The notes: generated by a model from the sequence alone, not told the origin. Counted from the first letter of the stretch, positions 6,222-51,646 are shown. The stretch is DNA of 64,000 nucleotides from a virus (IMGVR_UViG_3300027874_000010:10413-74412), one strand, 5' to 3'. Numbers and translations: made by a program.

Positions 6222-6351
6222 CGTGTCGTGAGGAGAGCAGAGAGTCCACCACCGGTCCCGCCGCCCGACCCCGAGCAGGAGGCGTACGAGGCCGCTCTTG
6301 TCCGAGAGTACGAGTTGTTCCATCGGTATTCAGATCAAGTAACCTATAAGC

Positions 6352-6738
6352 GTGTCTTCAAACGCTTACATGCGTGAATACATGCAGCGGCGCTACCGAG
6401 CGCGCATGGCGACAGCTATCGAACGGCTCGGTGGCCGGTGCATCCAGTGCGGCTCGACCGAGAGCCTGGAGTTCGACCACATCGACCCGTCCACGAAACT
6501 CATGGACATCTCCCAGGCCGTCACCTACTCGACCCGCGTGTTCGAGGCGGAACTGGCGAAGTGCCAACTGCTGTGCGCCTCGCACCATCAGCAGAAGACG
6601 CTCCAGCAGAACGGCATGACCCTGGCCCGAGGCACCCACGGCACGCTCTCCGCGCTCCGCTACTGTCGCCCGCCATGTGACGCCTGCCGAGCGGCCAAGG
6701 CCGACTACAACCGGCAGCACTACCTCTCGCGCCGTTAG
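6352..6738 (+). CDS. HNH endonuclease
   Basis: CIQCG...LEFDHIDP...KCQLLCASHH, C-terminal HGT...C..C; stop lies inside the tRNA-Lys. Confidence 0.9.
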   Translation: MSSNAYMREYMQRRYRARMATAIERLGGRCIQCGSTESLEFDHIDPSTKLMDISQAVTYSTRVFEAELAKCQLLCASHHQQKTLQQNGMTLARGTHGTLSALRYCRPPCDACRAAKADYNRQHYLSRR

Positions 6739-6802
6739 CTCAACTGGCTAGAGCAAGAAGCCCTTAACTTCGAGGTTCTCGGTTCGAGTCCGAGACGGCG
6801 CA
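6729..6802 (+). tRNA. tRNA-Lys(CUU)
   Basis: Cloverleaf: acceptor GCGCCGT/ACGGCGC, D-stem GCTC/GAGC, loop CCCTTAA, T-arm CTCGG-TTCGAGT-CCGAG; atypical C33; no encoded CCA. Confidence 0.88.
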
Positions 6803-6899
6803 CTGCCCCCGGCGTTGACCCCGCTGGCGCGTAAACGTTCGCTCATCAGCGACGACCCGCCTTGTCACGTCGGGGCTTTTCCATATCGTGGAGCGGCCA

Positions 6900-7175
6900 A
6901 TGAACCCTGACGAGATCCCAGTCAAGATCCTGCGCGAAGTCGAGGTCGGTGACACGCCGATGTTCCCCCGAGGGCACGCCCCTGGCGCATTGCCCAACGG
7001 CACGCGGGTGCGCAAGAGCCGCGACGACCCGGGCGACACTCACACCATCGGGGACCAGGCCACCGTGCTGTCCAGCGTCGGACCGCACGAAGGCATGTTC
7101 CTGTACTTCGTGGAGTGGGACGACTTGCCCCGGATCCCTGTCGGCATCCGCAGTGACAAGCTCTCCCGAGCCTGA
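6900..7175 (+). CDS. Hypothetical protein
   Basis: Track ORF 6888..7175, ATG 6900 after GGAG. Confidence 0.7.
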   Translation: MNPDEIPVKILREVEVGDTPMFPRGHAPGALPNGTRVRKSRDDPGDTHTIGDQATVLSSVGPHEGMFLYFVEWDDLPRIPVGIRSDKLSRA

Positions 7176-7284
7176 TGAACGACGGCTCAATGTCGCGCTG
7201 TTCGTCATCCTTTTCGTTTTTCTCACCTTCGGGATCGCCCTGGTGTTGACGCTTTCTCGACTGCATGGCGCGTAGGGTGGCGAC

Positions 7285-7497
7285 GTGGCACAACCACTAC
7301 TTGCCGCCTGCATGGGGTGCGGGGAGCGACTCGCCGTGGACGCTCAGGAAGCGCTCGCGGATACCAGAGGTTGGAAGTACGACTTTGATCTCGGCTGGCT
7401 GTGTCAGCGCTGCGACGGGCTGGACGCACGCCTGCAGCAGCGCCGCCGCCGAGGACCAGGCATGCCGATGAAAGGACACGGCAACGATGACCGATGA
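7285..7497 (+). CDS. Hypothetical protein with CxxC pairs
   Basis: Track ORF; overlaps next gene. Confidence 0.55.
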   Translation: MAQPLLAACMGCGERLAVDAQEALADTRGWKYDFDLGWLCQRCDGLDARLQQRRRRGPGMPMKGHGNDDR

Positions 7498-7783
7498 TCC
7501 GCGCACCTGGCTGGATCTGGACAACTGGTGCTACGAGCACATGGTCGAGAAGCTCGACTGTGTGCACTGCCAGTTCGGGGACGACAGTCTGATCTTCATG
7601 TACGACTGCGAGCGCTGCGCGATCCCGCACGGTGCCAAGACCTGGGGGTGGCTGTCGCCCGAGGGCCGCGAGTACTGCATCCGCTGCATGGCGATTGGGG
7701 CGTATCAGGATCTGGTGAGCCACGACTTGCTGATGCCGCAGTTCCCCAACCAGGGCGATCTGCCACCCGGCGCGCGACCATGA
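7487..7783 (+). CDS. Cys-rich hypothetical protein
   Basis: Track ORF; three CxxC; stop/start overlap. Confidence 0.7.
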   Translation: MTDDPRTWLDLDNWCYEHMVEKLDCVHCQFGDDSLIFMYDCERCAIPHGAKTWGWLSPEGREYCIRCMAIGAYQDLVSHDLLMPQFPNQGDLPPGARP

Positions 7784-7959
7784 CCAACTACAGGCCGATG
7801 GCGGTGTGGATCGTCAACCTGCTGGAGACGGACCCGGGGCAAGTCCTGCAGGCCCTGGCGGTGATGATGCGCGACACGCCCATCGACCAGCGCCTGCCAC
7901 TGATGGAAGCCATCGAAGCCGAGACGGTGAGGAGGCTCAATGAGCAAGAGCGAGGATAG
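7780..7959 (+). CDS. Hypothetical protein
   Basis: ATGA overlap with the previous stop. Confidence 0.65.
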   Translation: MTNYRPMAVWIVNLLETDPGQVLQALAVMMRDTPIDQRLPLMEAIEAETVRRLNEQERG

Positions 7960-8254
7960 GGCCTGGAAGGACTACGGCGACCGCTTCCGCCGCGAGGTGC
8001 TGCCGAAGATCATGAACTCGGCCGTGTTCCTCGCCATCGGCACCGAGGAACTGGACGTGAAGATGGCGACCGAACTCGGCGCGGCGCTGCTGGCCGACAA
8101 GCCGCTGCTGCTGGTCTGTCCGCGCGGCAGGCGTATCCCTGAGCGACTGCGGCGCGCGGCCGACATCGTGGTGGACAATTGGGATCCGGCCGATCCCGAC
8201 GCCCAGGAGCGCTTCGCGGATGCCCTGCAGCAACTGGATCTGCCCCCGCGCTAA
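7940..8254 (+). CDS. Hypothetical protein, 104 aa
   Basis: Track ORF; operon packing. Confidence 0.75.
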   Translation: MSKSEDRAWKDYGDRFRREVLPKIMNSAVFLAIGTEELDVKMATELGAALLADKPLLLVCPRGRRIPERLRRAADIVVDNWDPADPDAQERFADALQQLDLPPR

Positions 8255-8284
8255 TGTAGCCGAACGTGTGCTATAAGTGGCGGC

Positions 8285-14765: not shown

Positions 14766-15086
14766 TCAACTTTCGATGCTCAAGACGAGGCCGCGACCGT
14801 CGTTAGGGAAGCTCTCCTGATGCCCGGGCCACGCCACCAGCCAGTGGTAGAAGTACGCGCCAGGAACGTCCGTCTCGCCAGGTAGCCAGATGTGCTGCAC
14901 CAGCCCCTGGGTCGCATCGGCACCCGCGATGGTCGCGGGCAGGATCGTCTCGATGCTGGTCGCCATCTCAAAGAGCTTGAGCGAGACGGTGGCGTCGGTG
15001 AGATCCACGGCACTGAGATCCGGGTTGAGCAGCGTGCCCGTGATTGTCGGCAGCGTGTCGGAGAGCTTGAGATAGAAGTCGGCCAT
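14766..15086 (-). CDS. BppU-like baseplate/tail-associated Ig-fold protein
   Basis: FYLKLSDTLP...VDLTDATV...GLVQHIW...DVPGAY...ESFP; overlaps the stop of the giant tail gene. Confidence 0.7.
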   Translation of the reverse strand: MADFYLKLSDTLPTITGTLLNPDLSAVDLTDATVSLKLFEMATSIETILPATIAGADATQGLVQHIWLPGETDVPGAYFYHWLVAWPGHQESFPNDGRGLVLSIES

Positions 15087-18000
15087 CAGCTTGGCTCCTC
15101 GCCTCGATTCGGGTTGCCCCACGTCACCTTGCCAGATGCACCCGCGCTGGTCCTAGAGCCGTAGGGCGAGCCACTGGTTGCCCTGCGCCGTCCGCCCGCC
15201 GAGGTGCGCCCGTTGCTGCCGCCCACTGAGGTCCGCGACGGACCGGTGTGGATGATCTGACCGTCACCGGTCGTGCCCTCGAAGCGGTTGATGTGCAGGG
15301 TCGCATCCAGCGTGGCCTGCCCAACGGATGACCCGAACAGCATCTTGAAGATGGCGATCTCGCATTCGAGGGCGACCGAGGTGAGCACGCCCGATGGCGG
15401 CAGGTAGACCAGCAGCCCGGCCGCGAAGCTCGACTGCGCGACGGTGACCACCGTCAGGCCGATACGCAGCGGACTCAGGCTCGAAGACGCCTGGGCGACC
15501 AGCGGCGGCGGCTGGATGTACTGATAACGGGTTATCGCTGCCGTGCTGCCCGAGGCCGTCAGCACCGTCGCCTGGACGAAGACCGTCAGCCCCGCTTGAG
15601 TGCCGCCCTGAGCCGCGCCCGAGGCCCCCAGGCCGATGGCGAGCACCGCGTCGAGGGTGACGTGGGTGGTGACGATGCCCGCGAACTCGGTGCCCGCCTG
15701 GACGAACGTCACACCCGAGGTCTGCGCCTGGGCGATGGTGACGACACTCAGGCCGAAGTTGACCGGCGGCGCGCTCAGGCTGGCCTGGGCGATGACCGTG
15801 CCCGAGAGCACCGCGCGCTGGCCGGTCTGCGCGCTCGACGCGGCCTGGGCGACGGACTGGCCCGCCAGCAGCAGGACGAAGGGGACGTTCTGGACCAGCG
15901 CCTGACCCTGGACGCTGCCCGCAACCAGCGTGTTGAGCAGTGCGTCGAACTGCGACTGGGCGCGGATCGGGAGTGGCACCAGCGTGGCACCGAAGGCGCA
16001 CGCTGAGATCGCCTGCGAGACAACCTGGCCGCTGAGCGCCACGCGCACCGTCAGCGCCGTGACGCTCGTGCTCGCCTGCGGCAGGACGCTGCCAGCCATG
16101 AAGTAGGTGATGAACGGGTTGGGGACGAAGACCGTCGCCTGGGCCGCGCTCGCGCCGACGAGTGGGGAGGCAGGCACCAGCGAGCACGAGGTGCTGGCCT
16201 GGGCGACGGTCAGCCCGGCGAGGCCGTACGTAGCGGGCAGTTGTCCCGTGGCCTGGGCCTGGGCGACCACAGATCCCTGCAGCGCCAGGGCGACCTGGGC
16301 CGTGGCCGTGGCCTGGGCGACCACGACGGCCGAGCCGATCAGCGGCGAGTAGATCGCGGAGAGTGTGGCCTGCGTCGTGATCTGGCCGGTCAGAAGCTCG
16401 GTGGCCGGGCCGAAGACCAGCGCCTGGGCCGTGACGGTGCCCGCCAGCCCGATGGTGAGCGTGCCGGTGCCCGTCGAGAGCGCAACGGACTGGCTCGCCA
16501 GGAGCACCGTGGGTGCACCAAGCACTTCATCCAGCGCCGCCTGGGTGACGATGGCGACCGGTGCCAGGACCAGTTTGAGCGCCGCCGTGGTGTTGGTCGT
16601 GGTGAGGACCGCACCCGCCATCTGGACGCCGGTGCCGAAGGCTCCCGTCGAGATGGCCTGGGCGACGACGGCCTGCGAGCCGAGGGCGACCTTGAGGCCA
16701 GGGATTGGCCCGACTTCATCCAGTGCCGCCTGGGTCGCGATGGTGCCCGCCAGGGCGTTGGCTTGGCTCAGCGCCGCAGTGCTTACTGCCTGGGTCGCGG
16801 CATTGCCAGCCAGCCCCAGGACCAGCGTGTTGGTACTCAGCACCTGGGTGACCGTCGCGCCCTGGAGCTTCGCCGTCAGCGTGGCTGTGGACTGCGCCTG
16901 GGTGACCGTCGCACCCGTAACCAGCATGCCGATGATGAGTTGCGCCGAGGTGCTCGACGCCTGTGCGGTGGTGACCTGGGGCGGGAAGGCGACGGTGATG
17001 ATCGCGCTGGTCGATGCCTGCGCTGTGCCGATGCCGGTCAGGTTCGACATCGCACCGACGAAGACGGCCTGGGCGACGATGGTCTGGTTGCCGAGCGACA
17101 GCTTCAGCCCTGGGGTTGCGCCGATCTCATCCAGCGCAGCCTGGGTGGTGACCGTGCCCGTCAGGATGTTGACCTGGCTGAGCGCGCCAGCCAGCGTGAC
17201 CTGGGTGACCGTCGCCGCTGGCAGGAAGACGGTTGGCGCGCTCGTACTGAGCGCCTGGGTCGCCGTCAGCCCCTGCAGCTTGAGGGTCGGCGCGGCTCCG
17301 ATCTCGTCCAGTGCGGCCTGCCCGAAGAAGCTCGCCTGGAGCGCCTGGACCTGAACCATCACCGCGCTGGTGCTGGCCTGGGTGACGGTCGGTCCTGCCA
17401 GCAAGATCCTGGGCGCGCCGGTCGCGACGGCCTGGGTGACGATGCCCGGGGTACTCAGCCACTCGGTGAGCGGACCGCTGACGATGGCCTGGGCGATGAC
17501 CGATCCCTGAACCAGCAGCGTCGGCGCAGCCAGGATCTCGTCCAGGCCGGCCTGGGTCGCGATGGTGCCCGCCAGCGCCTGCTTCGCCGTGAGCGTGCCG
17601 CTCAGCGTTGCCTGGCCGATGGAGTTGCCGCCGAACGCTGGCGCGACCTCGCGCGGCGCGCCCAGGACGATGCGCCCGAGCAGCGTCATCGGCGTGCCCA
17701 GGACCGCCGTGTCGCGCAGCGCGATGCCGAGGCGCGTCGGCACACGAAGGTTGGCCGAGGTAACTGCCTGGGTCGCCACGACCTGGGTGCCGAGCGCGAA
17801 GCGCGGGCTGGCGGTGCTGACGGCCTGGGCGACGGGCGAGGCCGTCAGCATCTCCCACATCGGACCGATGACCGTGGCTTGCGCGACAGAGGTGCCCGCC
17901 AAACCAGCGGTCAGCGTAGTGAGCACCGGTGCGCCCTGGCTGACCGTCGCGCCCGCCAGTGCGAAGGCTTGGCTCAAGGTTGCGGACGAGACGGCCTGGG

Positions 18001-21000
18001 TCGCCGTCACCACCGCCGGTAGTGCCTGGGTGAAGGTGACGCTGCCGCTAGAGACGGCCTGGGTCGCGATGACCTGGGCACCGAGCGAGATTCGCAGCGT
18101 GGCCGTGCTGATCGCCTGGGCGACGAACGCGCCCATCATGCTGCCGCCGCCTGCGGCGTAGTGCAGTGCGACCTGGGTGGGCGACAGCGCCACGTTGTAG
18201 TAGGCGAACTGGGCGAGCTTCCCGGTGAAGTTGCCGCCACCGCCGCCGTTGCGCCAACCGAAGTTGTTGGTGATGTTCGTCAGCAGCGCGTAGCCGCTCA
18301 GGTCAATCGTGCCGACCTGGGCACCGTTGACGTAGGCGATGCCCGTGTTGACATCGCGCACGACCACGATGTGGTTCCACTGGTTCTGCTTGATGACACC
18401 CGTCGTGGACTGGATGGCGTGGTTGCCGCCGCTGCTATCGACGTAGTTGGCGTACAGCGCGGTTGGCGTGTCGTACTGCCAGACGTGGAAACCCTGGGTG
18501 GCGGTGCCGTTGCTGTAGTCGATAATCGGCTCGGTGTTGGCCGTTGTCGGGTAGATCCACATTTCCCAGGTGAACGGGTTGCTAATCAGATCCAGCAGTG
18601 AGAACGGCGCGGCGCTGTCCAGCGTGGCGTTGGTCGTGCCATCGAGCGAATAGGCGTAGCTCGGAACGTCAGTTGACAGACCGGGCTGCATGACGTTGAC
18701 GCCTGTCGGATTGGCCCGCATGGTCAGGCCGTGACCGCTCTCATCGAAGGCGTTGGCATCGCCCGCCTCGTGCATCCGCCAGTAGCCTTGAAGCCCCGTC
18801 GTAGCCTCGATGGACGAGCCGAGCGAGTCGCGTGCCTTGATGCCCTTGTAGTAGTGGTCCTGAGCGACGGCCAGGGTCATGACGTTGGTGTAGATCGCCA
18901 TCTCGTCAACGTTGCCCGCAAGGAGCGCGTTCGTGTACGAGTTCTTGCCGACGTAGGTGTTCCCGTATGCGTCAGCAAAGTTGTAGAACGTCCCCTTGCT
19001 GCCCGCCTGGGCCTCGATAGCCCCATTGACCATGACCGTCAGCGTGCCGCCACCGGAGGGCGACCAACTCGCCACGATGTGGTGCCACTGGCCGGTGGAC
19101 AGCGGTCGCCAGGTCGTGATGTTCTGCCAGGTGCCGTTGCCGCTCGTGTCGATAAACCAGTTCAGCGTGCCATTTGTGGCCGCGACCTCCAGCGAGAAGC
19201 CGCCCTTGTTGGTGTTGTCGTAGTAGCGGCGCTGAAAGATGGGCGCGCCAACAGTCCACGACGTGGCCCTTAGCCACGTCTCGATGGTGAAGCCGGTTGT
19301 GGTCCAGGGCGTCGAGTAGTCGCTCGAATAGATGTAGTTGACCGAGCCGTCGAGCGTTGCCGACTTGCCAATGCCATCGCTCAGCGCTGATGTGCCGCGC
19401 GGCTGCAGCGCACCCTGGAGGGCGAGGTTGGCGTTGAGCGCGGAGTCCCAACACGTCGTGCCGGCCGCCTCATCGAAGCGCCAGTAGTACTTGAGCGAGC
19501 CACCGAAGTTACTCAGGATCGTCGTGCTGTACTCGTTGTTCGCTATTGCCGAGGAGGTCGAAGCCTGAGCCTTCGCGATGCCACTCGATCCTGTCCACGT
19601 GATCGGGAGCCAGGTGTTGAGCGAGCTATAGAGGGCTTTGCCCGGCGAGGTGACGGCCTGGTAACAGCCCTCGACAATGTTCACCAGCAGGGCGGTGACC
19701 GCGAACGGATCGGCAACGGCGGTTCCGAGGGGGGTCCACTGGGCATTCAGCGGACCCCACGCCTGGAAGATGGTGTACCCGGTGTCGTAGTACGAGAAGT
19801 AGACCTTGCCAGCAGATTCGGTGATGCGCAGCCACAGGTTGTGGAGGCTCGTATTCGCGACCGTGCCGAGGGTGGTGAGCGTGCCCGCCACATTGGTGCG
19901 CGCAACCACATTCAGATCGACCATCCCGATTTCGAGGTAGTTGTTGCTGTCGATCTGAAGCTGAATCGTGGCGGTCTGGCCGGCCTTCCACGTTGAGGAC
20001 AGTTGCAGGTAGACGAACATGGATTTGTTCGTCAGGTCGTAGCTAGATTTTGAAAGCACCCCGCCATAGGTGCTTGCTCCTGGCCCGGCGTTGTTGACAG
20101 CCAGCGTGTAGGGGAAGGCCCACGGGTAGCCGGAGTAGCCAGAGTCGTTCTCGATTGCGGCTCCCGTGCCCCAGAAGCCCCACAACGTCGTATTCAGCGC
20201 TGGAGCGTTGAAGTAGTCGCTGATGGGGATGGTTGCCCCCATCGCAACCTGCCCCGAGCCGATCAGGAAGTGGTTGGTAATCTGTGATTTGGTGAGCGCG
20301 GTGTTGTACCAGGCAACTTCGTCAACACCGCCGCCGCCACCGATTGAGTAGTTGGTCGTTGGTGATGTCGGATAGCTGTTGCCAAGGACGAGGTTGGCCC
20401 CACCACTGGATCCGGGTCCGGCGAAGCTACCGCCAGTGACAGGGGACGAGCCTTGCAGAATAGAGTCGATGTAGATGGCAGCATTGGCTCCGTCGTACGT
20501 CAGGGCAACGTGGTGCCACACGTCCTTCGTGACGGTGTAGTTGACGCCACCGACCCAAACGCTGCCGCCGGTGCCATAGAACAAGCAATCGAGTTGCGTG
20601 CTGTTGCCTGGGCCGAAGTAGTAGCCAGCACTGCCATTGGTGGTGTCAAAAAACTGGCCGTACGCAACTGTTTGCGTTGAGGACCACTTGAACCAGCACT
20701 CCATCGTGAACGGATTGGTGCCACCAGTGCCGACATCGACACTGGTGCCAGAGATCCTGTCGGTGGTCTGCTGTGTGGTCCATGTCGCGCCGATGTTGCC
20801 CAGTAACGAGCTTGTCGCAGCGCCCTGGACGAGCGAGCCGCTGCTCGTCGCCATCAGGTCGTCGGTGCCTTTGTAGTCGTAGACCCGGCCGCTGCTCTCG
20901 TCCAACCGCCAGTAGTGCCTGAGCGACGACTCGGCGGCGATCATCGTGCCGTACGGATCGGTGGGAGCCGGTGGAGTTGGCCGGATGAACGGAAACGCGA

Positions 21001-22577: not shown

Positions 22578-22974
22578 AGACCGGCTGCGGCGGCGGCGCG
22601 GGTGCCTGGACCTGGCTCTCGTCCACCACTGGTCCCGCCGGCGACATGGGTGTGACGACGGTGCCCTGGTCCAGGCCAAGCGCCGAGACGACTGCGGCTT
22701 GCTGCTCGGGTGTGCCGTAGGCGTACGCCGTCGCAATGTCAATGGTCGGCACCGGCGTGGTCGCCAAGTTGAAGCTCCGCACGTAGGTGTCGAGGATCTC
22801 GTTGTTGCGGTCCTGCAGCCACTTGGCAGGGTCGTTGCCCTCGCCCGCGACCCACAGCAGCGCCTGGTTCTGCACGTCGGTCGCCTCGATGGTGTACGTG
22901 CCTGCGGCCAGCGGCGGGATGTACGGCGGCGGGGCGACGATGGTCGTACCAGGGGTCGGTGGTTGGTCAGTCAT
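22576..22974 (-). CDS. Hypothetical tail-region protein (possible fibre assembly factor)
   Basis: ATG 22974 overlaps the tail fibre TGA. Confidence 0.7.
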   Translation of the reverse strand: MTDQPPTPGTTIVAPPPYIPPLAAGTYTIEATDVQNQALLWVAGEGNDPAKWLQDRNNEILDTYVRSFNLATTPVPTIDIATAYAYGTPEQQAAVVSALGLDQGTVVTPMSPAGPVVDESQVQAPAPPPQPV

Positions 22975-25900: not shown

Positions 25901-26063
25901 ACGGACCGTTGACCGGATCCTGGCACAGCACGGCGCGATACTGGCCCGACGACGGCCAGCTACCCGCATCACCCGTCTGGATGGTGAGGCTCGTCGCGGC
26001 GGCGGTTATAGCTCCGTTGAGCGTGCTCTGTAGCCCGTTACCGGGCAGCACCTCCATGACCAT
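22971..26063 (-). CDS. Tail fibre/spike with C-terminal intramolecular chaperone (Peptidase S74-like)
   Basis: STRDVKTNL...HHGFIAEDL...IAYTELIPIVVEAIKEL; internal ~80-aa repeats with YGVY..NQ motifs. Confidence 0.9.
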   Translation of the reverse strand: MVMEVLPGNGLQSTLNGAITAAATSLTIQTGDAGSWPSSGQYRAVLCQDPVNGPFELVRITGGQGTATLTVVRGAESYNGSTTAYAWPSGSTISAVITNGGLAAYLGAGNFLPLTGGTLTGNLTVQGQLGVGAPVLSNTGMVVLTPSTQLAGATQYGALFAAITSSVATVMGAAVAAQSATQPASFTQAESTDFLALGPSWGSGSSITNAIGVHVNNQGGGQATNAYGVYIDAQSGSSQNVGLYNAGTTQLNSFLGIGIGPSSTTMVWLQGGSTLTGTQQSGLAVTTNFNSSATVSGASISVGFQTAAQVFTMTSGYGLQIQAALVQSGATVTTMYGIYVNNQTVSGVGTSYGVYIADQTGSTNNVGLWCLGQARFDRGIGMGTVPNPSVGFRMSSTLLISTSPNGYGFWVNPTFNSQTTATAAAIACSVITQAAGFTVTSGYALWVQTPVLGSGSAITTQYGVYVRNQGVSGIANAYGLYLENTSGASSTNISLYNAGSTQLSTAVGMGTAPISNQLVMASGMSIVQGTTGAANNSLDRTGIMGGTDPAYALRVNGAAWYAGNVSAGGFSTNGNFQTGGWMQGQYFVTDGDYRGGSVNVDRNGLGDGTVNQPWLHFAGGGEGLGSKRTSGGNQNGLDFYQGNTVRMQVNNQGNISIGAANPSPNQSSLYVNPTALGGLNQFGVQVVVNGTSAGTSGIIGVSAVMTTAAASYTVGTGYTFLAYGPSLGAGSSLTTQYGLYIANQGAAGITSAFGIYIAAQSGASSSNYGIYCVADVLIAAQSSGSHLNVLVRTGGNSAGDLGGYFIQANNGTPQFEMWSDSAQGTQRIKSAGTLALHAGNNGFTATNQWLTIASGGQITVNTQQTVSAGNVFNVYGATGSYSTLLVGYNGSGSYGLQVQAGTGSGDIAMVVYNRAASINIFYLRGDGYPYVNQAWAVGSTRDVKTNLTPLSNALATVRRMDGQRFNYVHDPAQAHHGFIAEDLDAILPDVVRRSAEGKIEGIAYTELIPIVVEAIKELAGRVDALDGRAA

Positions 26064-32564: not shown

Positions 32565-32746
32565 GCGGGATCTCCGTCCTCGAACTGGATGCCGTGGTCG
32601 CCCGGGTACGTCTGGCGATGCTCGATCTTGGACTGCCAGATCTCGTCGGGGATGCCGTGCGTAAACGCCTCGCAGCGCATGAACGCCTTGGGTGGCGGCG
32701 CTTCGAGGTGGATGCAGTGCAGGCAGATGGCTGGTGGGAACTTCAC
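32546..32746 (-). CDS. Small Cys/His protein (CxxCxH...CxAF..GIP..I...H...GDHGIQF), candidate immunity/inhibitor
   Basis: GTGA-coupled to the polyprotein stop. Confidence 0.8.
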   Translation of the reverse strand: MKFPPAICLHCIHLEAPPPKAFMRCEAFTHGIPDEIWQSKIEHRQTYPGDHGIQFEDGDPAWTAPS

Positions 32747-35700: not shown

Positions 35701-38700
35701 CTTGAGCGTGCTCAGGATGCGAGACGCGGGCACCGTCGCGGCCATCAACGCCCCAGGGATGTTGCGCCCGCCCGAGAATTTGTACGCCTGACGGAAGCTG
35801 TACGCCCAGGATGACGCGGGCTGATTGCCGACCGTCACCTGATGCGGGTTGCTATCGGGCTTGAAGCCCGCCTGCCGCACCATGTCCGCGTCACGGAATC
35901 TGACGCCGCGATACAGGGTCATCTCCTTGATCCCGTCGCGCGCCAGTTCCTCCTGGGTGTTGTCGTACATAGCACGCGCGAACGCGCGATACGCCTCGCC
36001 GTTCTGTGCGTACACCCTCGCGACGTTGGGGGAGTCCATCGGCATGTGCTCGGTGCGCGCCTTCAGCCCGAACTCCTCGTTGATCGCCTTCTGCATCGCC
36101 ACCGCGTTGATGTTGCCGTCGCCCGACGTGCCAGCCCACATCGCGACCAGGCTGTTGACCGCGTGGTGCTGGCGTGTCTCGCCGGGCTTCAGCAGCGCCG
36201 TGGACAGGCTCATGGCGTACTTGCGGAACGCGGGATTGTTCGCCAGTCGCCCCGAGAGGTTCCGCACGATGTCGCCCTTGAAGTAGTTCGGGTTCAGGTT
36301 GTCGTTGTTGAGCGCCTGCTCAGCCGCCTGCTCGCGCGACTGGGCCTCGGCCTGACCCCACTCCTTGGGCGGCGCGGACATGGCGTTGCCGCCCACCGTC
36401 GTCCAGCGTCCATACTCGTCGCGCGGCTGGTTCTCATCGAATGCCTTGAGTTCGAGCCAGCGCACAGCGGTCTTGGTGTTCACCACATCCTCGGGGAAGC
36501 TCGGCGGGCCGTTACCGTTGGCTGACCAACTGAACGCGGCCACGTCGTCCTTGCCGCCCAGGACCACGACCTCCTTCTCGTCTTTGCACCCGAAGCCGGT
36601 CTTCATGGTCGAGAGGATTCGCGAGGCGGGTACCGTCGCCGCGATGACCGCGCCGTGCGTATCCGAGCCGCCCGCGAAGCCGGAGGCCACGTCGAAGCTG
36701 TACGCCCAGGACGACGCGGGCTGCTCGTTCACCGTCGCCGGGTGCGACTTGTCGTCGTACTCGAAGCCCATCGGCGGGTTGTCAGGCCCGAACTGGAGGC
36801 CACGGTACAGCGTCATCTCGCTGATGCCCTGGCGCGCCAGTTCCTCCTGGGTGTTCTGATACATCGCCCGCGCGAACGCGCGCAGGCCCGGCCCCTGCTC
36901 CCTGTACTCCTTGCGCGCCTCGAACTTCAGGTCCGCTGCGCTCTTGTCCCACGATGGTCCGCTGAGCAGATGGTCCATGCGGGCGTCGTTCAGGTGGAAC
37001 TCGTCGCGTATGGCCTGCTGCATGATGACCGACTGGACGTTGTTGTCACCCGAGCTATTGGCCCACTGCGCGATCAACCCCGACGCCGTGTCTACGGGGC
37101 TGGAGGTGCCAAAGCGCTTCTCGCCGTCAGCCAGGTACTTCTCCCAGTCGGGGTTGCCCTGCAGCCGATACGCGAGATCCTTGCTCAGGCGCTCCTTGTA
37201 CTCCGAGGCCGAGTGGGAATCGAACTGGCTGTCGATGGCCGCATCCGCGACGTTCTCGCGTCCGATGAGCGTGGAGCCTGACTCCTTGGCTGGAGCCTTG
37301 AGCGCATCCTCCTCGGCGTTGCCCTCAGCGGTCCAGCGGCCGGCGGCATCGCGCGCCTGGTTCGGGTCGTAGTCCTTTGTCTCCAGGGATCTCCAGGCGG
37401 TCTTGACGTTGAACAGTCCCTCGGGACTGAGCGGGCGTCCGGAGAGCTTGCTCCAGGCTTGTGCGGCGACCTGATCGTTACCGCCCAGGACCACCACTTC
37501 GTGTTCCCGCTCGCACCCGATACCCGAGTTCAAGGTGCTCAGGATGCGACTGGCGGGCACCGTTGCCGCCAGCATCGCGCCCCGCGAGTCGAAGTGACCA
37601 TGCAGCGCACTCGCGGCCTGCGTCACGACGCCAGCGATGGTCGCGCTCCCAAAATCGTAGGACCACGATGAGGCGGGCTGCTGGCTGACCGTCGTCGCGT
37701 GGGGTTCACCGTCGAACGTCAGGCCAGGGGGAGTCTGAGAGCCGAAGCTCATGCCGCGATACAGGGTCATCTCCTTGATGCCCTTTGAAGCGAGGTCGGC
37801 CTGAGTGTTGTCGTACATCGCCCGCGCAAACGCGCGGTAGGCCGCACCGTTGGCCTCGTAGTCGGGTCGCGCCCCTTCAATGCCCAGGTGATCCGTCACG
37901 GCGTCCTTCAGTCCGAACTCGTCGCGGATCGCCATCTGCATTGCCACGGCCTGCGGTCGGTTGTCACCCGAGGACTGCGCCCACAACTGGACCAGCGACG
38001 ACGCCGCCGTCTCGGACTGAGTGGGCACGTGCGCCCTGAGCACGTCGTACATCACCACCCTGGGCGGAACGGGATGCGCTCGCGTCAGGTACTCCTTCCA
38101 GGCGGGGTTGTCCTCAAGTCGGTCGCTGAGTTCCTTGGCGATGCGGACTTTTTCCTCGGGCCGCGAGGTCGAGTGGTCGTTGAGCGCACGGTCGGCTTCG
38201 TCCCGCCGCGCGTGCGCCACGATTTGCTCCTTGGACCAACCAGGCTTGCCGAAGGCTTCGATGGCCGAGGCTGTGGGTGCGCCGGTCGCCGCCCACCGTC
38301 CGCGCTCGTCGCGCGCCTGGTCCGGGTCGTACGCCTTGAAATCAAGCGATAACCCGTTATCGGCCCAGGTCTTGGTGTGGACCAGATCGCCCGGCTCGGA
38401 CGGCGGGAAGCCGTGGTTGGCGTACCAGGCCCACGAGTTGACTTCATCCTTGCCACCCAGGACCACGACCTCCTTCTCGTCCTTGCAACCCCACCCCGAG
38501 TCCATCGTGCTCAAGATCCGTGAGGCGGGCACGGTCGCGGCGAGCATCGCGCCGGTACCGCTCTCGGTCGGCGCGAAGCCGCTGGCCTGGTGGTAGCTGT
38601 AGGACCACGACGAGGCGGGCTGCTCGACGGTGGTGACCGCGTGCTCGCGGCCGTCGAAGATCAGACCCGTCTTCGGATCCGGGATGGTGGGGTGCGGCGT

Positions 38701-41421
38701 CACGCCGCCGACGCCGGTATCGAAGCTCATACCGCGATACAGGGTCATCTCGGTAATGCCTTTTGCAGCCAGGTCCGCCTGGGTGTTTTCATACATCGCC
38801 CGCGCGAAATCGCGGTACGCCTCGCCCCTGATGGCGTACTCCTGGCGCATCTCCTCCTTCAGGCTGGCCGCGCTCGTTCCACTCGATTCCCAGGACTGGC
38901 CGCTGAGCAGATGGTCAGTCGTCGCGTCTTTCAGCCCGAACTCGTCCTTGACAGCCTGCTGCAGCGCCGCCGGAATCACGTGGTTGTCGCCTGATGAGCC
39001 GGCCCAACTCTGGATCAGGTTGGACGCAGCCCAGGCACGCTCGGCAGCGACACTCCTGGCAGGCGCTTCCATCGGCTCGCTGCCCGACCAGTTCTGGTAC
39101 GGGTGCTCGCGGAACGCCTCGGCCTGAGAGTGCGCGTAGTCGTTGAAGGCGGCACTGCCCTCCAGTCGATCCCCGATCTCCTGGGAGATGCGCGCCTTGT
39201 ACTCCTGCTTGGAGGCGCTCATGTCGTTGATCGCCTCGTCCACTTGGTTGTGCGCCGTCTCCGCTGCCGCCGTGCCCGCCGCCGGACTGCCCGGGAAGTA
39301 CGAGCCTTCTTCGGGGTTCGGCAGGCTCGGCGTGCCGGTCGCCGCCCACCGTCCGCGCTCGTCACGCGGCTGGCTCGGGTCGTAGTCCTTGCGCTCCAGG
39401 GGGAGCCATACTGTCTTGACGCTCAACAGCGGCCCGGTGCTCTTGGGTGGACCGGCACCACCCGCGTCCCACGCCTGGGCAGTCACTTCATCTTTGCCGC
39501 CGAGCAACACCACCTCGCGCTCGGGCTTGCAACCAAAGCCCGAGTTCATGGTTGAGAGGATGCGACTGGCGGGGACGGTCGCCGCCATGACCGCACCCGG
39601 GTAGCTGCTGCCAGCTTCGGACGAGAACGTCGTGGCCTGGGAATAGGCGTACGCCCAGGACGAGGCCGGCTGCTGCACCACCGTGGTGCGGTGCGGCTCG
39701 CCATCCCCCTGCAGGCCGGCTGGCAACTCGGCATCGCGGGCGAAGTGCATCCCGCGATAGATGGTCATCTCCTTGATGCCCTTCGCCGCCAGGTCTGCCT
39801 GGGTGTTGTCGTACATCGCTCGCACGAACGCGCGGTAGCCATCCCCGAACGTGCCACCCGAGAGGCCGGTGGACTGGTTCGAGAAGTCACTGGCTCGACT
39901 GAGGTCCGTCCGGCCCACGTGGTCCATCGTCGCGTCCTTCAGGCCGAACTCGTCCTTGATGGCCTGCTGCATGGCGACCGAGGCGCTGCTGGAGTCCATC
40001 GAGGTGTTGGCCCATCCCTCGATCAGTTGGCTGACCAACTTCTCCGACGCCGCCGGACCGGTCGATGCGCCCACGTAGTCGCGGAACTTGACCCACCGTG
40101 GATCTTTGTTGGCGCGGACGGCGATCTCCTTGGCGATGCGCGCCTTGTACGCCTCGCGTGTGGCACTCTGGTCGTTGAGCGCGGCCTCGGTCGCTTTGAG
40201 CATCGCCTGCCCGGAGTCCTTGCCCGTGTCAGGCGCGCGAGTCACGTCGCCCGCGCCCACCGTCCAGCGACCGGATTCGTCGCGCGGTTCGCTCTCGTCG
40301 TACGCCTTGAATTGTCCAGCGCGTTGGACAGTTTTTCTGCGCGGGTTGTACTTGGCTCCTGGGCGCGACAGCATGCCCGCGATTCGCGGACCGTCGCCTT
40401 TGCCGAAGAAGTTGCCCGCGCCCGTCCACGAGTTCACCGTGTCCTGTCCGCCGAGCACGACGATCTCGTTCTCGTCCTTGCAGCCCATGCCGCTTTTCAT
40501 CGTGCTCAGGATGCGTTCGGCCGGCACCGTCGCGGCCATGACCGTGCCCACGACGCCGCCCGAGAAGGCACGCGCCACGTCCGGGTTGTAGGACCACGAC
40601 GACGCGGGCTGCTGAGTGACCGTCAGCGTCTCGGTGGCGGGCACGTCCTGATTCAGGCCGAAGCCTGCGGCGTGGGCGTCAGACGAGCGATCCCAGGACA
40701 TGCCGCGATACAGCGTCATCTCCGAGATCCCCTGGGCCTTCAGTTCAGCCTGAGTGTTGTCGTACATCGCCCTGGCGAACGCGCGATACGCCTCGCCGTT
40801 TTTGGCGTAGTCCCGCTCGGCCTGCTCCATCGTGCCTGCCAGGTCTTCGCTCAGGAAGTGCTCGGTGCTGGCGTTGGTCAGCCCGAACTCGCGCTGCACG
40901 GCGAGTTGCATCGCCACTGCCTGGCGGTCGCCGTCACCCGAGGTGCCCGCCCACTGGTTGACGAGGATGCTGACGCCGGTCTTCAGCGGGTCGGCCTCGC
41001 GGTCCCACATCGGCTTGAGCATCGGGTTGTGACGACCCGTCGCGACCATCTCTTTGAAGGCCGCGTTGTCGCGCAGCCGCGTGGCGATCTCGTCGGTAAT
41101 GCGCGCCTTGTACTCCTCGGCCTTGGCGTTGGGATCGTTGAGCTTGGCGTCGGCCTCCGCGACACGCTCATTGACGCGCTCCTCGCTGGCGCGCTTGGGC
41201 TGCGCCGTACCACCGCCCGAGTCCGTCCAGCGCCCACCTTCGTCGCGCGGCTGAGACGGATCGAAGTCCTTCTTCACCCACACGCCGCTGCGATTTTCCA
41301 GAAAGCTAAATTTTCGGAGCTTGGTGGTCGGCCGCTGCTCCTCGGCCGCGAGGTCCGCCCAAATCTTGTCGAGGATGGCCTCGTCCTCGGGCGTGGTGTC
41401 GTACGGCGAGCCGACGCTCAC
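32743..41421 (-). CDS. Nine-module polyprotein (2892 aa): seven ADP-ribosyltransferase-like domains + two HExxH metallopeptidases, each with an N-terminal PRDxxGRW tag
   Basis: Seven copies of EMT[LIV]YRG...QPASSW[SA]Y...AA[TK]VPA.RILST..[ST]G.GC..E.E.V.LG (R-S-ExE); THELAH and VHEFGH modules with SRYA...E..AE. Confidence 0.92.
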   Translation of the reverse strand: MSVGSPYDTTPEDEAILDKIWADLAAEEQRPTTKLRKFSFLENRSGVWVKKDFDPSQPRDEGGRWTDSGGGTAQPKRASEERVNERVAEADAKLNDPNAKAEEYKARITDEIATRLRDNAAFKEMVATGRHNPMLKPMWDREADPLKTGVSILVNQWAGTSGDGDRQAVAMQLAVQREFGLTNASTEHFLSEDLAGTMEQAERDYAKNGEAYRAFARAMYDNTQAELKAQGISEMTLYRGMSWDRSSDAHAAGFGLNQDVPATETLTVTQQPASSWSYNPDVARAFSGGVVGTVMAATVPAERILSTMKSGMGCKDENEIVVLGGQDTVNSWTGAGNFFGKGDGPRIAGMLSRPGAKYNPRRKTVQRAGQFKAYDESEPRDESGRWTVGAGDVTRAPDTGKDSGQAMLKATEAALNDQSATREAYKARIAKEIAVRANKDPRWVKFRDYVGASTGPAASEKLVSQLIEGWANTSMDSSSASVAMQQAIKDEFGLKDATMDHVGRTDLSRASDFSNQSTGLSGGTFGDGYRAFVRAMYDNTQADLAAKGIKEMTIYRGMHFARDAELPAGLQGDGEPHRTTVVQQPASSWAYAYSQATTFSSEAGSSYPGAVMAATVPASRILSTMNSGFGCKPEREVVLLGGKDEVTAQAWDAGGAGPPKSTGPLLSVKTVWLPLERKDYDPSQPRDERGRWAATGTPSLPNPEEGSYFPGSPAAGTAAAETAHNQVDEAINDMSASKQEYKARISQEIGDRLEGSAAFNDYAHSQAEAFREHPYQNWSGSEPMEAPARSVAAERAWAASNLIQSWAGSSGDNHVIPAALQQAVKDEFGLKDATTDHLLSGQSWESSGTSAASLKEEMRQEYAIRGEAYRDFARAMYENTQADLAAKGITEMTLYRGMSFDTGVGGVTPHPTIPDPKTGLIFDGREHAVTTVEQPASSWSYSYHQASGFAPTESGTGAMLAATVPASRILSTMDSGWGCKDEKEVVVLGGKDEVNSWAWYANHGFPPSEPGDLVHTKTWADNGLSLDFKAYDPDQARDERGRWAATGAPTASAIEAFGKPGWSKEQIVAHARRDEADRALNDHSTSRPEEKVRIAKELSDRLEDNPAWKEYLTRAHPVPPRVVMYDVLRAHVPTQSETAASSLVQLWAQSSGDNRPQAVAMQMAIRDEFGLKDAVTDHLGIEGARPDYEANGAAYRAFARAMYDNTQADLASKGIKEMTLYRGMSFGSQTPPGLTFDGEPHATTVSQQPASSWSYDFGSATIAGVVTQAASALHGHFDSRGAMLAATVPASRILSTLNSGIGCEREHEVVVLGGNDQVAAQAWSKLSGRPLSPEGLFNVKTAWRSLETKDYDPNQARDAAGRWTAEGNAEEDALKAPAKESGSTLIGRENVADAAIDSQFDSHSASEYKERLSKDLAYRLQGNPDWEKYLADGEKRFGTSSPVDTASGLIAQWANSSGDNNVQSVIMQQAIRDEFHLNDARMDHLLSGPSWDKSAADLKFEARKEYREQGPGLRAFARAMYQNTQEELARQGISEMTLYRGLQFGPDNPPMGFEYDDKSHPATVNEQPASSWAYSFDVASGFAGGSDTHGAVIAATVPASRILSTMKTGFGCKDEKEVVVLGGKDDVAAFSWSANGNGPPSFPEDVVNTKTAVRWLELKAFDENQPRDEYGRWTTVGGNAMSAPPKEWGQAEAQSREQAAEQALNNDNLNPNYFKGDIVRNLSGRLANNPAFRKYAMSLSTALLKPGETRQHHAVNSLVAMWAGTSGDGNINAVAMQKAINEEFGLKARTEHMPMDSPNVARVYAQNGEAYRAFARAMYDNTQEELARDGIKEMTLYRGVRFRDADMVRQAGFKPDSNPHQVTVGNQPASSWAYSFRQAYKFSGGRNIPGALMAATVPASRILSTLKTGIGCKNEDEVVVLGSTDDVVAAQAWGNTPTGAPHGASEIFHTKLALQLVASLRHWFTKAYDESQPRDERGRWTHLGQAIPLSDPHALSAVMLLDKGSVHTIPSGAKAFGTPEEAERHTAAQSAAIPGISVRVVYDVPGNVQPGDKILVSEAPDINPDVIHVKGSILPPDYKPPEPEVIPRPTAFAPAKSLEDAAQFTRGLGIKYPHFEEQGDLPIANEANRQLFDITEKNPSMVMPKSVAVESMADRDTLASYNRGGDYLAVNRNGDWSNAKATAQDQANSHAWSDSDPAHVMTHELAHLQHAVHEESLGKEHDAHEPWANPAHRAAAAQVSRYAATEPAEFVAETYTGMLNGKTYSQDVMDAYHAYDGPPLPSALPSHKTWALLELKEYDPNQARDERGRWEATGAPSAPDDPLGMGRTAVNAARADEQAANKALFNPRSSRDEYKERISWELGNRLKDSAPFNEYVQRLLDEGRASRAGLPSRQMDDVDRVNQTARLVHGWAETSGDTNVRAIAMQQAIKDEFGLEDATTEHLDARVAYQGRDAQARVEQEYQQNGAAYRAFARAMYDNTQADLAAKGITEMTVYRGLNFSAGKTVAALQRETGMKFNGKPAVVQTAQQPASSWSYSFKQAANFAGEHEGAMMAAKVPASRILSTMNSGFGCKPEKEVVLLGGKDEVSAQAYSKRRGGGPPPNGAALFQTKTTWADLETKAYDPDQPRDDSGRWTSGGGGGAPKPKFAALDAPLKNPPAALGPESPYGQNDATKWSQAQIAKALKGTLPNPRARVDYDSYLKRQLVPVSQFLGKLSNQYPEVGKMLLQVGQPRTKDMKDYMRENPQAIMATSSNEFGYSAIHFGSGYQPNDPLPAEKYERDGADTGFSYPESKIPGSTAVHEFGHAVANAIQDNRDAFTEDQRMAFNSFFFLSKTLAPENVGDFSRYAQRSRDEAWAEAFSAYYLGSEHPVAKAAGDVMKKVFGKAPRASDE
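38348..38361. promoter_or_regulatory. Palindrome GATAACCCGTTATC (copy 5 of 7)
   Basis: In the linker between polyprotein modules 3 and 4. Confidence 0.65.
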
Positions 41422-47225: not shown

Positions 47226-47438
47226 GTGACCACCACCACGACGGCCTTCCCCACTTGGAAGCCTTCCCCCCGCCACGCGGCGATGATGGAAGAACCACCC
47301 ACGGCCCCCAAAGCTACGGCCGAGGCCGTGACGCACGATTGGGGCTTCGGGGCCAGGGGCGCGGCCAAAGCCTGGTCGCCGCCCGAAACGCCCGCTCCAC
47401 CCAAGGATTGGTGGAAACGGGATCGAGCTTTCGCCTGA
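47226..47438 (+). CDS. Hypothetical protein
   Basis: GTG ACC ACC start after AGGAG. Confidence 0.65.
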   Translation: MTTTTTAFPTWKPSPRHAAMMEEPPTAPKATAEAVTHDWGFGARGAAKAWSPPETPAPPKDWWKRDRAFA

Positions 47439-47463
47439 CGGTCTTCGGGCCGTCGTTCCCCTC

Positions 47464-47538
47464 GCACGAGGAGCCAGGCCGGTTGCCAGGCGCACGTCTG
47501 CAAAACGTGATTCGCGGGTTCGACTCCCGCCTCGTGCT
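47464..47538 (+). tRNA. tRNA-Cys(GCA)
   Basis: Acceptor GCACGAG/CTCGTGC, anticodon arm CACGT-CTGCAAA-ACGTG, T-arm GCGGG-TTCGACT-CCCGC, U discriminator; atypical G8. Confidence 0.85.
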
Positions 47539-47626
47539 CCGCGCGTCACCGCCCGTGAATTGTTCGGGCCTGGGCCGGAAGTCTTGCCGCCGACGCGACC
47601 ACACTCAGAGAAGGAGAACCCACCAC

Positions 47627-49263: not shown

Positions 49264-49293
49264 CTGTGAACGTGTGCGAGCATCGGCTATACT
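49264..49293 (+). promoter_or_regulatory. Sigma70-like promoter, repeated cassette family
   Basis: CTGTGA-18-TATACT, GTGCG box. Confidence 0.6.
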
Positions 49294-49313
49294 GTGTGTG
49301 CAAGGAGATAACA

Positions 49314-50104: not shown

Positions 50105-50493
50105 CCACCAACGCCTTCGATACCCCGCTCTACGCTGGCCCACCGACCGAGGCCACGCTCGACCAACTCACGCGGGATCTGACCGCCTTCGAGAGCTTCC
50201 GTGCGATGCTCGACGCCGAGGGCAACTACCGCCCGACGATCATGATGCGCGATCTGCGCCACGTCCAGTTGGCCGACGCCTACGACCTGGCGATGATCGG
50301 TCGCGGCGATCCACGGCGCGCCTACCGAGGATCGCTGGACAACCGCCCGCTGCCGATCACGCTGACGGTCACCGAGGGTCGCCAGCTTATGGACTTCCTG
50401 GGCACCAAAGACGACGAGATCGTGGACGGCGGGTGGGAGCACGTCGAGAGCGTGCTCGGCAAGGTCGTCGCGGCGCTCCAGGCGGCAGGCTGA
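50101..50493 (+). CDS. Hypothetical protein
   Basis: GTG after AAGGAG. Confidence 0.75.
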   Translation: MTTNAFDTPLYAGPPTEATLDQLTRDLTAFESFRAMLDAEGNYRPTIMMRDLRHVQLADAYDLAMIGRGDPRRAYRGSLDNRPLPITLTVTEGRQLMDFLGTKDDEIVDGGWEHVESVLGKVVAALQAAG

Positions 50494-50816
50494 TGACAAG
50501 CAGTGTGACGGCGGGACCGACCCGCCTGCAGGACTACCTGTACATGCGCGCGTTCATGGACGGCCCTCTGGATGCCGAGCAGCGGCGTGAGGCACGTGCC
50601 GCAGCGGGTGTGAACCCCACCGGCGGCTGGATGGACGGTTGTCTTGAGTGGTGCGCCGACCACGTGCGCATGCAACTGACAATCGGAGGCCGCGCCTACG
50701 TCGCCTGGTGCGAGTGGCAGGGCTACCCCGATGGCCCGATTCACGACGACGACACGCACGGGTGGGAAACCTGGCTGGCTGGCTTCATCCAGGGCTACAC
50801 GTTGGGCGTAGGCTGA
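50493..50816 (+). CDS. Hypothetical protein
   Basis: TGATG overlap. Confidence 0.7.
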   Translation: MTSSVTAGPTRLQDYLYMRAFMDGPLDAEQRREARAAAGVNPTGGWMDGCLEWCADHVRMQLTIGGRAYVAWCEWQGYPDGPIHDDDTHGWETWLAGFIQGYTLGVG

Positions 50817-50820
50817 GGGC

Positions 50821-51102
50821 ATGGCTGAGGAGCAGATGGTCCGCGACATGCTCGACCTGGCAACCGTCAAGGCCCCCGAGGTCGCGGAGTGGGCGCAGGA
50901 CAAACGCCGCGCCGCGTTCGTCGCGTTTGCGATGGGCGCGCAGTGGGCGCTCGAACTCGCTGCCCTGGACCCCGAGGTCGCCCGCAAGCTGATCGAGCAG
51001 ATCCACGCCTCGCAGACCAGCGACACCGCGCCCGAGTGGAACACCAACGCGCTGGCGTTCATCGCTCGCTGCCACGGCCACCGCCCACCCGGATCCAACT
51101 AG
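50821..51102 (+). CDS. Hypothetical protein
   Basis: Track ORF. Confidence 0.7.
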   Translation: MAEEQMVRDMLDLATVKAPEVAEWAQDKRRAAFVAFAMGAQWALELAALDPEVARKLIEQIHASQTSDTAPEWNTNALAFIARCHGHRPPGSN

Positions 51103-51107
51103 CCCAC

Positions 51108-51142
51108 TGGCCTGTAGCTCAACGGTAGAGCACGCGACTGTG
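51108..51142 (+). pseudogene. tRNA 5' half (acceptor 5' strand, D-arm, anticodon 5' stem) ending at CT-GTG
   Basis: TGGCCTG-TA-GCTC-AACGGTA-GAGC-A-CGCGA-CTGTG; no T-arm or acceptor 3' strand follows. Confidence 0.7.
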
Positions 51143-51146
51143 TACC

Positions 51147-51584
51147 GTGTGCTCTATGCAGCGCAACAACCCGAAGGCCGTGGGCGAGCGGTCCGAAGTC
51201 ATGGTCCTGGCGGCGCTCCTGCGTCAGCGCCACGTCGTCCTGCAGCCGTTTGGCGACAACCAGCGGTACGACCTCGTAGTGGATCTCGACGGCGTGTTCG
51301 TTCGCGTGCAGTGCAAGACAGCGCGGCTGGTCAACGGCGCACTCACCTTCGCGACGTGCAGTTCCCAGGCGCACCGCCAGCGGGGGCACCAGACCTACCG
51401 TGGCGAGGCCGAGTACTTTGGCGTCTACAGCCCCGATCTCGACCGCGTGTTCATGGTGCCGGTCGAAGGTACAGGCGAGCGCTCATCGTGGTTGCGACTG
51501 GAAGCGCCGCGCAACGGACAGCAGGCGAAGGTCAGATACGCCGACCAGTTCGCCGTGGAATCATGGGAGCACACTCCCCGGTAG
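51147..51584 (+). CDS. PD-(D/E)XK endonuclease of the group I intron-associated (I-Ssp6803I-like) type
   Basis: GERSE...PFGDNQRYDLVVD...RVQCKT...YRGEAEYFGVY. Confidence 0.88.
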   Translation: MCSMQRNNPKAVGERSEVMVLAALLRQRHVVLQPFGDNQRYDLVVDLDGVFVRVQCKTARLVNGALTFATCSSQAHRQRGHQTYRGEAEYFGVYSPDLDRVFMVPVEGTGERSSWLRLEAPRNGQQAKVRYADQFAVESWEHTPR

Positions 51585-51646
51585 CTCAATGGTCGAGCGC
51601 GGTCCTGTTAAGACCGGAGATGCCCGTTCGAGTCGGGCCTGGGGAG
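51575..51646 (+). tRNA. tRNA-Asn(GUU)
   Basis: Acceptor TCCCCGG/CTGGGGA, anticodon arm CGGTC-CTGTTAA-GACCG, T-arm GCCCG-TTCGAGT-CGGGC. Confidence 0.93.

Follow-up and report, generated by a model that had tools for sequence, protein, structure and literature searches.

Two nuclease genes of unrelated folds lie flush against tRNA genes in a stretch of 64,000 nucleotides of viral DNA (IMGVR_UViG_3300027874_000010:10413-74412), which we call the window and which comes from a phage of soil with a high guanine-plus-cytosine (GC) content. The window is part of a 74-kb IMG/VR virus record. One gene encodes an HNH endonuclease of the beta-beta-alpha-metal class and reads into a tRNA-Lys gene, and the other encodes a PD-(D/E)XK endonuclease and reads into a tRNA-Asn gene. 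From the arrangement of these genes and their relatives, we think it probable that both open reading frames (ORFs) are free-standing homing-type endonuclease genes living in transcribed tRNA leaders. The non-random feature of the two loci is the flush junction between nuclease gene and tRNA; the position of the stop codon inside the tRNA fits the null expectation.

Two unrelated nuclease frames end inside tRNA genes

ARAGORN and Rfam agreed on three tRNA genes in the window, all on the plus strand: tRNA-Lys(CTT) at 6729-6803 (57 bits in Rfam), tRNA-Cys(GCA) at 47464-47540, and tRNA-Asn(GTT) at 51575-51648 (56 bits). The HNH gene (6370-6738, plus strand) encodes 122 amino acids that match phrog_4234 (E value, 4e-33) over profile positions 10-124 of 130, and 11 additional HNH PHROGs were matched. 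The Pfam HNH score, 14.6 bits, is under the cut-off of 21.4, and the translation carries the Cys/His motif CIQC ... DH ... CQLLCASHH.

The PD-(D/E)XK gene (51156-51584, plus strand) encodes 142 amino acids, of which residues 5-133 align with positions 2-136 of the 138 in Pfam PDDEXK_5 (PF11645; E value, 2e-33; 115.6 bits versus a cut-off of 26.1). The protein also matches PDB chain 2OST_A (E value, 5e-6), which we take to be I-Ssp6803I. The gene for that enzyme lies within a group I intron of tRNA-fMet, and the enzyme cleaves the anticodon-arm region of the uninterrupted tRNA gene. The residues D39, Q52, and K54 do not vary in an alignment of 17 homologs, and E14 hardly varies; these residues of the catalytic E ... 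D ... (E/Q)xK pattern align with YDLV and VQVK of 2OST.

A preliminary description of this DNA had noted that both nuclease genes use U8-A9-G10 of the following tRNA as their stop codon, and the translations agree. The HNH frame, from ATG 6370 or GTG 6352, terminates at TAG 6736-6738, which is tRNA-Lys positions 8-10, and the PD-(D/E)XK frame, from ATG 51156 or GTG 51147, terminates at TAG 51582-51584, the same positions of tRNA-Asn. Each tRNA thus contains only two nuclease codons and the stop (tRNA positions 2-10).

Nuclease genes are packed against tRNA genes across phages

We fetched loci and contigs for comparison and refer to them by L-numbers (L001, L121, etc.). Among ORFs of at least 90 amino acids, 56 end between -20 and +50 of a tRNA start versus 7 between -50 and -20. 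At the tRNA 5' edge, 27 nuclease ORFs overlap the tRNA and 9 abut it, compared with 2 overlapping and 13 abutting among other ORFs (Fisher test, 9e-5); this and the p values that follow are optimistic, since the loci behind them were chosen by nuclease homology and have common ancestry. Further tRNA-overlapping ORFs were identified as HNH_3 and HTH-PDDEXK_5 proteins. Ordinary genes (encoding a glycosyltransferase and DenV-like, RNase H-like, phosphoesterase, and lysozyme proteins) stop 2-12 nucleotides before the tRNA. The window holds a comparator of its own, a non-nuclease ORF followed by tRNA-Cys (47226-47540, plus strand): the ORF stops at 47436-47438, and the tRNA comes 26 nucleotides after it with zero overlap.

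Pairing involves particular isotypes. Homologs of the PD-(D/E)XK protein (33-66% identity) lie directly before tRNA-Asn in 8/12 distinct cases (p, 4e-8), and in L087 and L100 the gene lies directly after tRNA-Asn. More distant PDDEXK_5 members are paired with tRNA-Ile (phage My1, L097, L140, and L141) or tRNA-Leu. A profile search of IMG/VR for further PDDEXK_5 genes gained only 5 loci. In all homologs, the last conserved motif of the PD-(D/E)XK domain, at its C terminus, ends 0-6 residues before the tRNA. Homologs of the HNH protein occur in phage tRNA arrays, namely those of cluster L and cluster C Mycobacterium phages, of Streptomyces phages, and of a Stenotrophomonas phage, the named phages being Crossroads, Catera, Braelyn, and BUCTxx99. 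Their commonest partner is tRNA-Lys (5/20; p, 0.015), which stands immediately upstream of the nuclease gene in L002 and L003.

A slot before tRNA-Leu(TAG) in cluster L phages (L001 Crossroads, L112 Bazzle, L113 Bromden, and L114 Finemlucis) has varied occupants: a 128-amino-acid HNH protein gene that overlaps the tRNA by 32 nucleotides, an unrelated HNH gene of 224 amino acids, and small hypothetical ORFs. In Finemlucis, ARAGORN places a tRNA-Trp within an annotated HNH coding sequence (CDS).

The shared stop position matches the neutral expectation

As a null set for stop position we used 394 distinct phage tRNAs from the fetched loci. TAG stands at positions 8-10 in 52% of them, and a frame entering the tRNA in the position-8 register ends there in 54% of cases. 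Position 8 accounts for 29% of first in-frame stops within the tRNA, and for the remaining two frames the first stops are mainly at 13 and at 21 or 36. The 27 distinct nuclease ORFs that enter a tRNA stop at 8 in 10 cases and at 13 in 8 cases, and two of two stops at 8-10, as in the window, would occur by chance with a p of about 0.1. The shared stop position is therefore unremarkable, because the conserved U8-A9-G10 is a UAG common in phage tRNAs. If nuclease genes are packed flush onto tRNAs, the shared stop is a by-product of that packing, and the eye-catching coincidence of the two loci becomes a neutral consequence of conserved tRNA sequence.

The survey bore out the preliminary description in one respect, since reading into the tRNA is enriched in nuclease ORFs over other ORFs, but the share that stops at position 8 is what neutrality predicts. 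The view of the U8-A9-G10 stop as a conserved design had to be given up: counted from the tRNA start, the stops of homologs fall between -17 and +44, mostly at 8, 13, 21, 30, and 37, and others have their own stop a few bases 5' of the tRNA. Separately, a 126-amino-acid ORF of Crossroads (L013:4604-4981) that has no Pfam match likewise ends at TAG 8-10 of a tRNA-Asn.

These counts bear on the idea that the coupling proposed in the preliminary description is a selected function. The stop would have its place within the tRNA in order to be stripped by RNase P, the non-stop mRNA would be cleared by trans-translation, and nuclease dosage would run inverse to tRNA maturation. RNase P cleavage at +1, an established action, necessarily removes a stop at 8-10, reading into the tRNA is strongly enriched in nuclease ORFs over other tRNA-adjacent ORFs, and start regions that are structured or translationally coupled are in line with tight damping; a comparable hypothesis has been published for selB ORFs with tRNA-Sec (PMC8124441). 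However, the stop position is not conserved among homologs, 9/36 nuclease ORFs retain a stop of their own before the tRNA, and the 10/27 at position 8 need no selection. Moreover, in L087, L100, L002, and L003, the nuclease gene follows its cognate tRNA instead of preceding it. We therefore consider selection for such coupling unlikely. As a side effect, removal of the stop codon by tRNA 5' processing is plausible, since it follows from RNase P action: a cut at tRNA +1 would yield a stopless nuclease mRNA, and finished enzyme would come from unprocessed transcripts only.

The HNH gene occupies a variable slot before a resident tRNA-Lys

We found no close cultured relative of the phage, as megablast searches with both nuclease loci gave zero matches among 50,697 phage records, and IMG/VR searches with the terminase and a 107-amino-acid neighbor returned no syntenic relative spanning the nuclease sites. 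We obtained syntenic metagenome contigs through protein look-ups of small flanking genes. Three of these (L121, L122, and L123) lack the HNH gene, and the flanks of L121 and L123 are 79-90% identical to the window. An unrelated 84-amino-acid ORF occupies the slot in L121 and L123, and L122 has an empty site consisting of the leader-ORF stop, 8 nucleotides, and tRNA-Lys. Homology between the window and its relatives is lost at about 6335, in the 3' end of the leader ORF, and returns at 6727, 2 nucleotides before tRNA-Lys. These break points show that tRNA-Lys is resident and that the variable insert is the HNH gene with a 35-nucleotide upstream hairpin segment.

The leader ORF is small and conserved (6228-6377, plus strand; its start is uncertain, with in-frame GTG codons at 6213 and 6228), and its frame is kept in L121, L122, and L123 with third-position changes. 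The ORF terminates at TGA 6375-6377, within an overlap with the start of the HNH gene (ATGCGTGA), and in L121 it has an ATGA overlap with the 84-amino-acid alternative occupant; from these overlaps we infer that the slot is translationally coupled in both. Downstream of tRNA-Lys, a terminator-like hairpin with a T run (6859-6876, plus strand) is conserved in L121-L123.

The preliminary description had placed the start regions of both nuclease genes in hairpins. The inverted repeat TAAGCGT/ACGCTTA does lie at 6347-6368 (plus strand), just 5' of the HNH ATG and within the 3' end of the leader ORF, as part of the segment that relatives without HNH lack. The region 6335-6385 folds at -13.5 kcal/mol (z, -2.95; 4/200 shuffles) and so beats its shuffles, but its best fold is not exactly the pairing that had been named. 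The second repeat was also found where it had been described, as a 12-bp hairpin at 51125-51157 (plus strand), but it folds no better than shuffles (-18.7 kcal/mol; z, -1.7; 17/200). The loop of the HNH-side hairpin (GTCTTCAA) has some likeness to a tRNA-Lys anticodon loop, to which we give no weight.

About 600 bp separate the HNH gene from the terminase genes (minus strand, 4313-5788 and about 5673-6100), a location that might make it the terminase-associated packaging HNH of a cos-type phage, with its adjacency to tRNA-Lys incidental. This proximity is outweighed by three observations: the gene is transcribed divergently from the terminase genes, L121-L123 do without it despite a terminase region that is 80-90% identical, and its homologs sit in tRNA arrays distant from terminase genes. 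We regard a packaging role as very improbable.

The tRNA-Lys of the window differs from the copies in L121 and L123 at D-loop position 17 and position 33 only, both in its 5' half; a co-conversion tract would need more than these two sites to be recognized. Position 33 (base 6762) is C in the window, giving the loop CCCTTAA, and U in the HNH-free L121 and L123. U33 is nearly universal in tRNAs, and C33 was found in 23/392 phage tRNAs in our set. The change could give self-immunity against the HNH enzyme, could let the tRNA evade an anticodon nuclease of the host, or could be due to drift.

The rare U33C in a nuclease-linked tRNA, absent from nuclease-free relatives, counts in favor of another explanation, in which the enzymes are domesticated helpers whose cutting in or near tRNA genes spreads or amplifies spare tRNAs against host tRNA-cleaving defenses. 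The precedent is SegB, for which this has been shown with tRNA-Tyr; it amplifies segments that contain tRNAs and allows T6 to escape Septu (PMC13096335). Two of the only three tRNAs of this phage are nuclease linked, and both nuclease genes are fixed in all sampled copies. Even so, the window and its copies show no tandem amplification of either locus, no evidence connects the host with a defense that targets tRNAs, and self-immunity or drift would account for U33C equally well. A domesticated role is, on balance, quite improbable.

The PD-(D/E)XK gene and its tRNA-Asn vary as one block

At the second locus, the segment from 51103 to about 51772 is missing from L119 and L120, whose 4.6-5.6 kilobases contain no tRNA at all. 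The left break coincides with the stop codon of the preceding gene, and the right break, at about 51773, falls at a conserved promoter-like region. The missing block contains a tRNA 5' half, the PD-(D/E)XK gene, tRNA-Asn, and, in its right-hand portion, a hydrophobic ORF of 38 amino acids (51657-51772, plus strand). The PD-(D/E)XK gene and tRNA-Asn thus vary together as one block.

According to the preliminary description, these were fused mobile nuclease-tRNA cassettes that arose twice independently. The polymorphism for presence and absence and the unrelated folds uphold part of this claim, and independent origins extend to further folds, with HNH and PD-(D/E)XK here and HNH_3 and HTH-PDDEXK_5 in related loci. 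However, the HNH gene joined a tRNA-Lys that was already resident, and only the PD-(D/E)XK gene varies with its tRNA.

A broken tRNA 5' half precedes the PD-(D/E)XK gene

Most of the hairpin 5' of the PD-(D/E)XK start derives from a broken tRNA gene, of which it retains the D-arm and anticodon arm. The remaining tRNA 5' half (51108-51141, plus strand) comprises the acceptor strand, D-arm, anticodon stem, and the loop as far as CTGT; among upstream regions, it scores 14.1 bits against a tRNA 5'-half profile with nhmmer (E value, 3e-4). In the 12-bp stem, the remnant pairs with bases up to the nuclease ATG. Such halves lie directly 5' of nuclease starts in 5/69 cases and of control ORFs in 0/113, and the sole weak match among controls belongs to an HNH_3 gene. 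In L022 (Asp/Asp) and L062 (Lys/Lys), the remnant has the isotype of the intact tRNA downstream. We base an Asn isotype for the window remnant on its first base and its break point: it opens with T1, like nearly all tRNA-Asn genes in the set, and its break between CTGT and GTA is identical to that of the L092 remnant. A comparison of the remnant with the 392 tRNA 5' halves did not confirm it as a duplicate of the window tRNA-Asn, which ranked 13th behind a best match to tRNA-His.

This pattern is consistent with insertion of a nuclease gene into its cognate tRNA gene at the anticodon loop, as judged from the remnants. Alternatively, the gene may have inserted between neighboring isoacceptor genes, the first of which lost its 3' half. 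A tRNA intron carrying the PD-(D/E)XK ORF was considered and rejected: no group I or group II intron was found in the window at Rfam gathering scores, no tRNA 3' half lies downstream, and tRNA-Asn is complete.

The remnants raise the tentative possibility, which we hold to be somewhat doubtful, that these genes are self-contained tRNA homing cassettes without an intron. The enzyme would cut in or just after the anticodon loop, and the nuclease gene together with a fresh tRNA copy, or its 5' part, would be copied into the cut cognate tRNA gene. The old 5' half would then be left behind on the upstream side, both as a scar and as the left arm of homology, and a functional tRNA would be restored downstream. 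If true, an I-Ssp6803I-type enzyme could invade a tRNA gene without ribozyme splicing.

Homing into tRNA leaders as the probable explanation

We return to the reading that we prefer, in which both genes are probably homing-type endonuclease genes of tRNA leaders. In phages that lack the nuclease, the enzyme would cleave the cognate tRNA gene or the junction at its 5' end, and repair guided by homology in the conserved tRNA sequence would then copy in the nuclease gene. The tRNA leader would be a safe, always-transcribed harbor. Flush packing would carry the nuclease frame into the tRNA, where it would end at the first in-frame stop, and one frame in three would meet the conserved U8-A9-G10 as UAG. 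As a side effect at the first locus, HNH translation would depend on the leader ORF through the stop/start overlap (ATGCGTGA) in a folded region. The sporadic presence of nuclease genes at a fixed locus, seen for HNH, for PD-(D/E)XK, and in the cluster L tRNA-Leu slot, is as expected of free-standing homing endonuclease genes.

Several points weigh against this reading. Its evidence is comparative anatomy, and the p values given above are optimistic. The HNH and PD-(D/E)XK genes are unchanged in every one of 14-16 near-identical contigs of the phage, which come from several samples; both genes are fixed in the sampled copies, and recent movement is not indicated. The divergence of PDDEXK_5 proteins does not track that of the adjacent tRNA-Asn (rho, 0.03), which could fit retargeting or saturation. 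Finally, the site is tRNA-less in L119 and L120, and so clean homing into a tRNA gene is not how this lineage acquired the PD-(D/E)XK block.

Relation to known systems

Free-standing homing endonucleases are already known from phage tRNA regions. T4 SegB cuts tRNA genes, preferably the tRNA-Asn of T2L (PMC2330249). Like that of SegB, the nuclease genes of the window are free-standing, lie in tRNA gene regions, and are absent from related phages; in the case of SegB, flanking tRNA genes are co-inherited. SegB differs in being a GIY-YIG enzyme that recognizes the universal T-psi-C motif; its homologs co-localize with tRNAs, and their neighborhoods show no isotype preference (PMC13096335). The window genes instead encode HNH and PD-(D/E)XK folds, are associated with particular isotypes, and have ORFs that enter the tRNA.

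The family of I-Ssp6803I has been described from mostly cyanobacterial members, with a 23-bp pseudo-palindromic target (PMC3384342). The window PD-(D/E)XK protein belongs to the same PDDEXK_5 family, matches the enzyme directly, and has the same catalytic residues. Unlike I-Ssp6803I, it comes from a high-GC soil phage and not a cyanobacterium, and its gene is free-standing before an intact tRNA-Asn, with a broken tRNA half upstream and no intron.

HNH genes are the commonest CDSs in mycobacterial tRNA arrays (PMC5966550). The window HNH protein belongs to the same family as Crossroads gp113 and Catera gp167 (41-44% identity), whose genes lie between tRNA genes and have annotated CDSs that overlap the next tRNA. 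Unlike these arrays, the window phage has single nuclease-tRNA units. The work on array HNH genes (PMC5966550, citing Pope et al. 2014) gives co-occurrence; it does not describe a flush junction, stops within the tRNA, pairing with isotypes, or sites without the nuclease. A cellular likeness is found in selB ORFs that contain or overlap tRNA-Sec, where the ORF also enters the tRNA and processing was proposed to limit full-length protein (PMC8124441). There, the gene is functionally tied to its tRNA and without mobility, and the processing limit is hypothetical. What is new here is the role of a PD-(D/E)XK enzyme of the I-Ssp6803I type, the isotype-specific pairing, the base-precise junction with empty sites, and the recurring tRNA-half remnant.

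Phage tRNA genes are now regarded as counter-defense cargo, with SegB as a homing nuclease that spreads and amplifies them. To this picture our analysis adds further nuclease folds, including relatives of I-Ssp6803I, that are tied to particular tRNA isotypes at base-pair precision, that occupy the tRNA leader, and that sometimes bring a broken tRNA half. The tRNA-Asn and tRNA-Lys genes are candidate cut-site targets, and such elements offer a possible route for single tRNA genes into phages without arrays. For annotation, overlaps of ORFs and tRNAs at nuclease genes are real, and trimming them is unwarranted.

Other features of the window

A phage-specific promoter-like motif, GTGCGAA-N3-GTGTATACT (6203-6221, plus strand), heads the unit of leader ORF, HNH gene, and tRNA-Lys. 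Its general form, GTGCGAA-N3-GTGTAT(T/A)(A/C)T, occurs 6 times in the window versus 0.05 expected, at 6203, 47184, 51808, 60090, and 61601 on the plus strand and at 54079 on the minus strand. The sites often have GTGCG-rich repeats upstream and a GC hairpin with GAGAGGAG before the first ATG. The copies at 6203 and 47184 head units of small ORFs and a tRNA (tRNA-Cys in the case of 47184), and the copy at 51808 precedes the operon after the tRNA-Asn block.

The terminase large subunit encoded at 4313-5788 has 491 amino acids and no intein, and some close relatives have 684-718 amino acids with Hint and Intein_splicing matches, which makes the terminase intein a second selfish-element polymorphism in this phage group. 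Mid-genome, the minus strand carries three very long ORFs, at 15086-22003 (2305 amino acids), 22971-26063 (1030 amino acids), and 32743-41421 (2892 amino acids).

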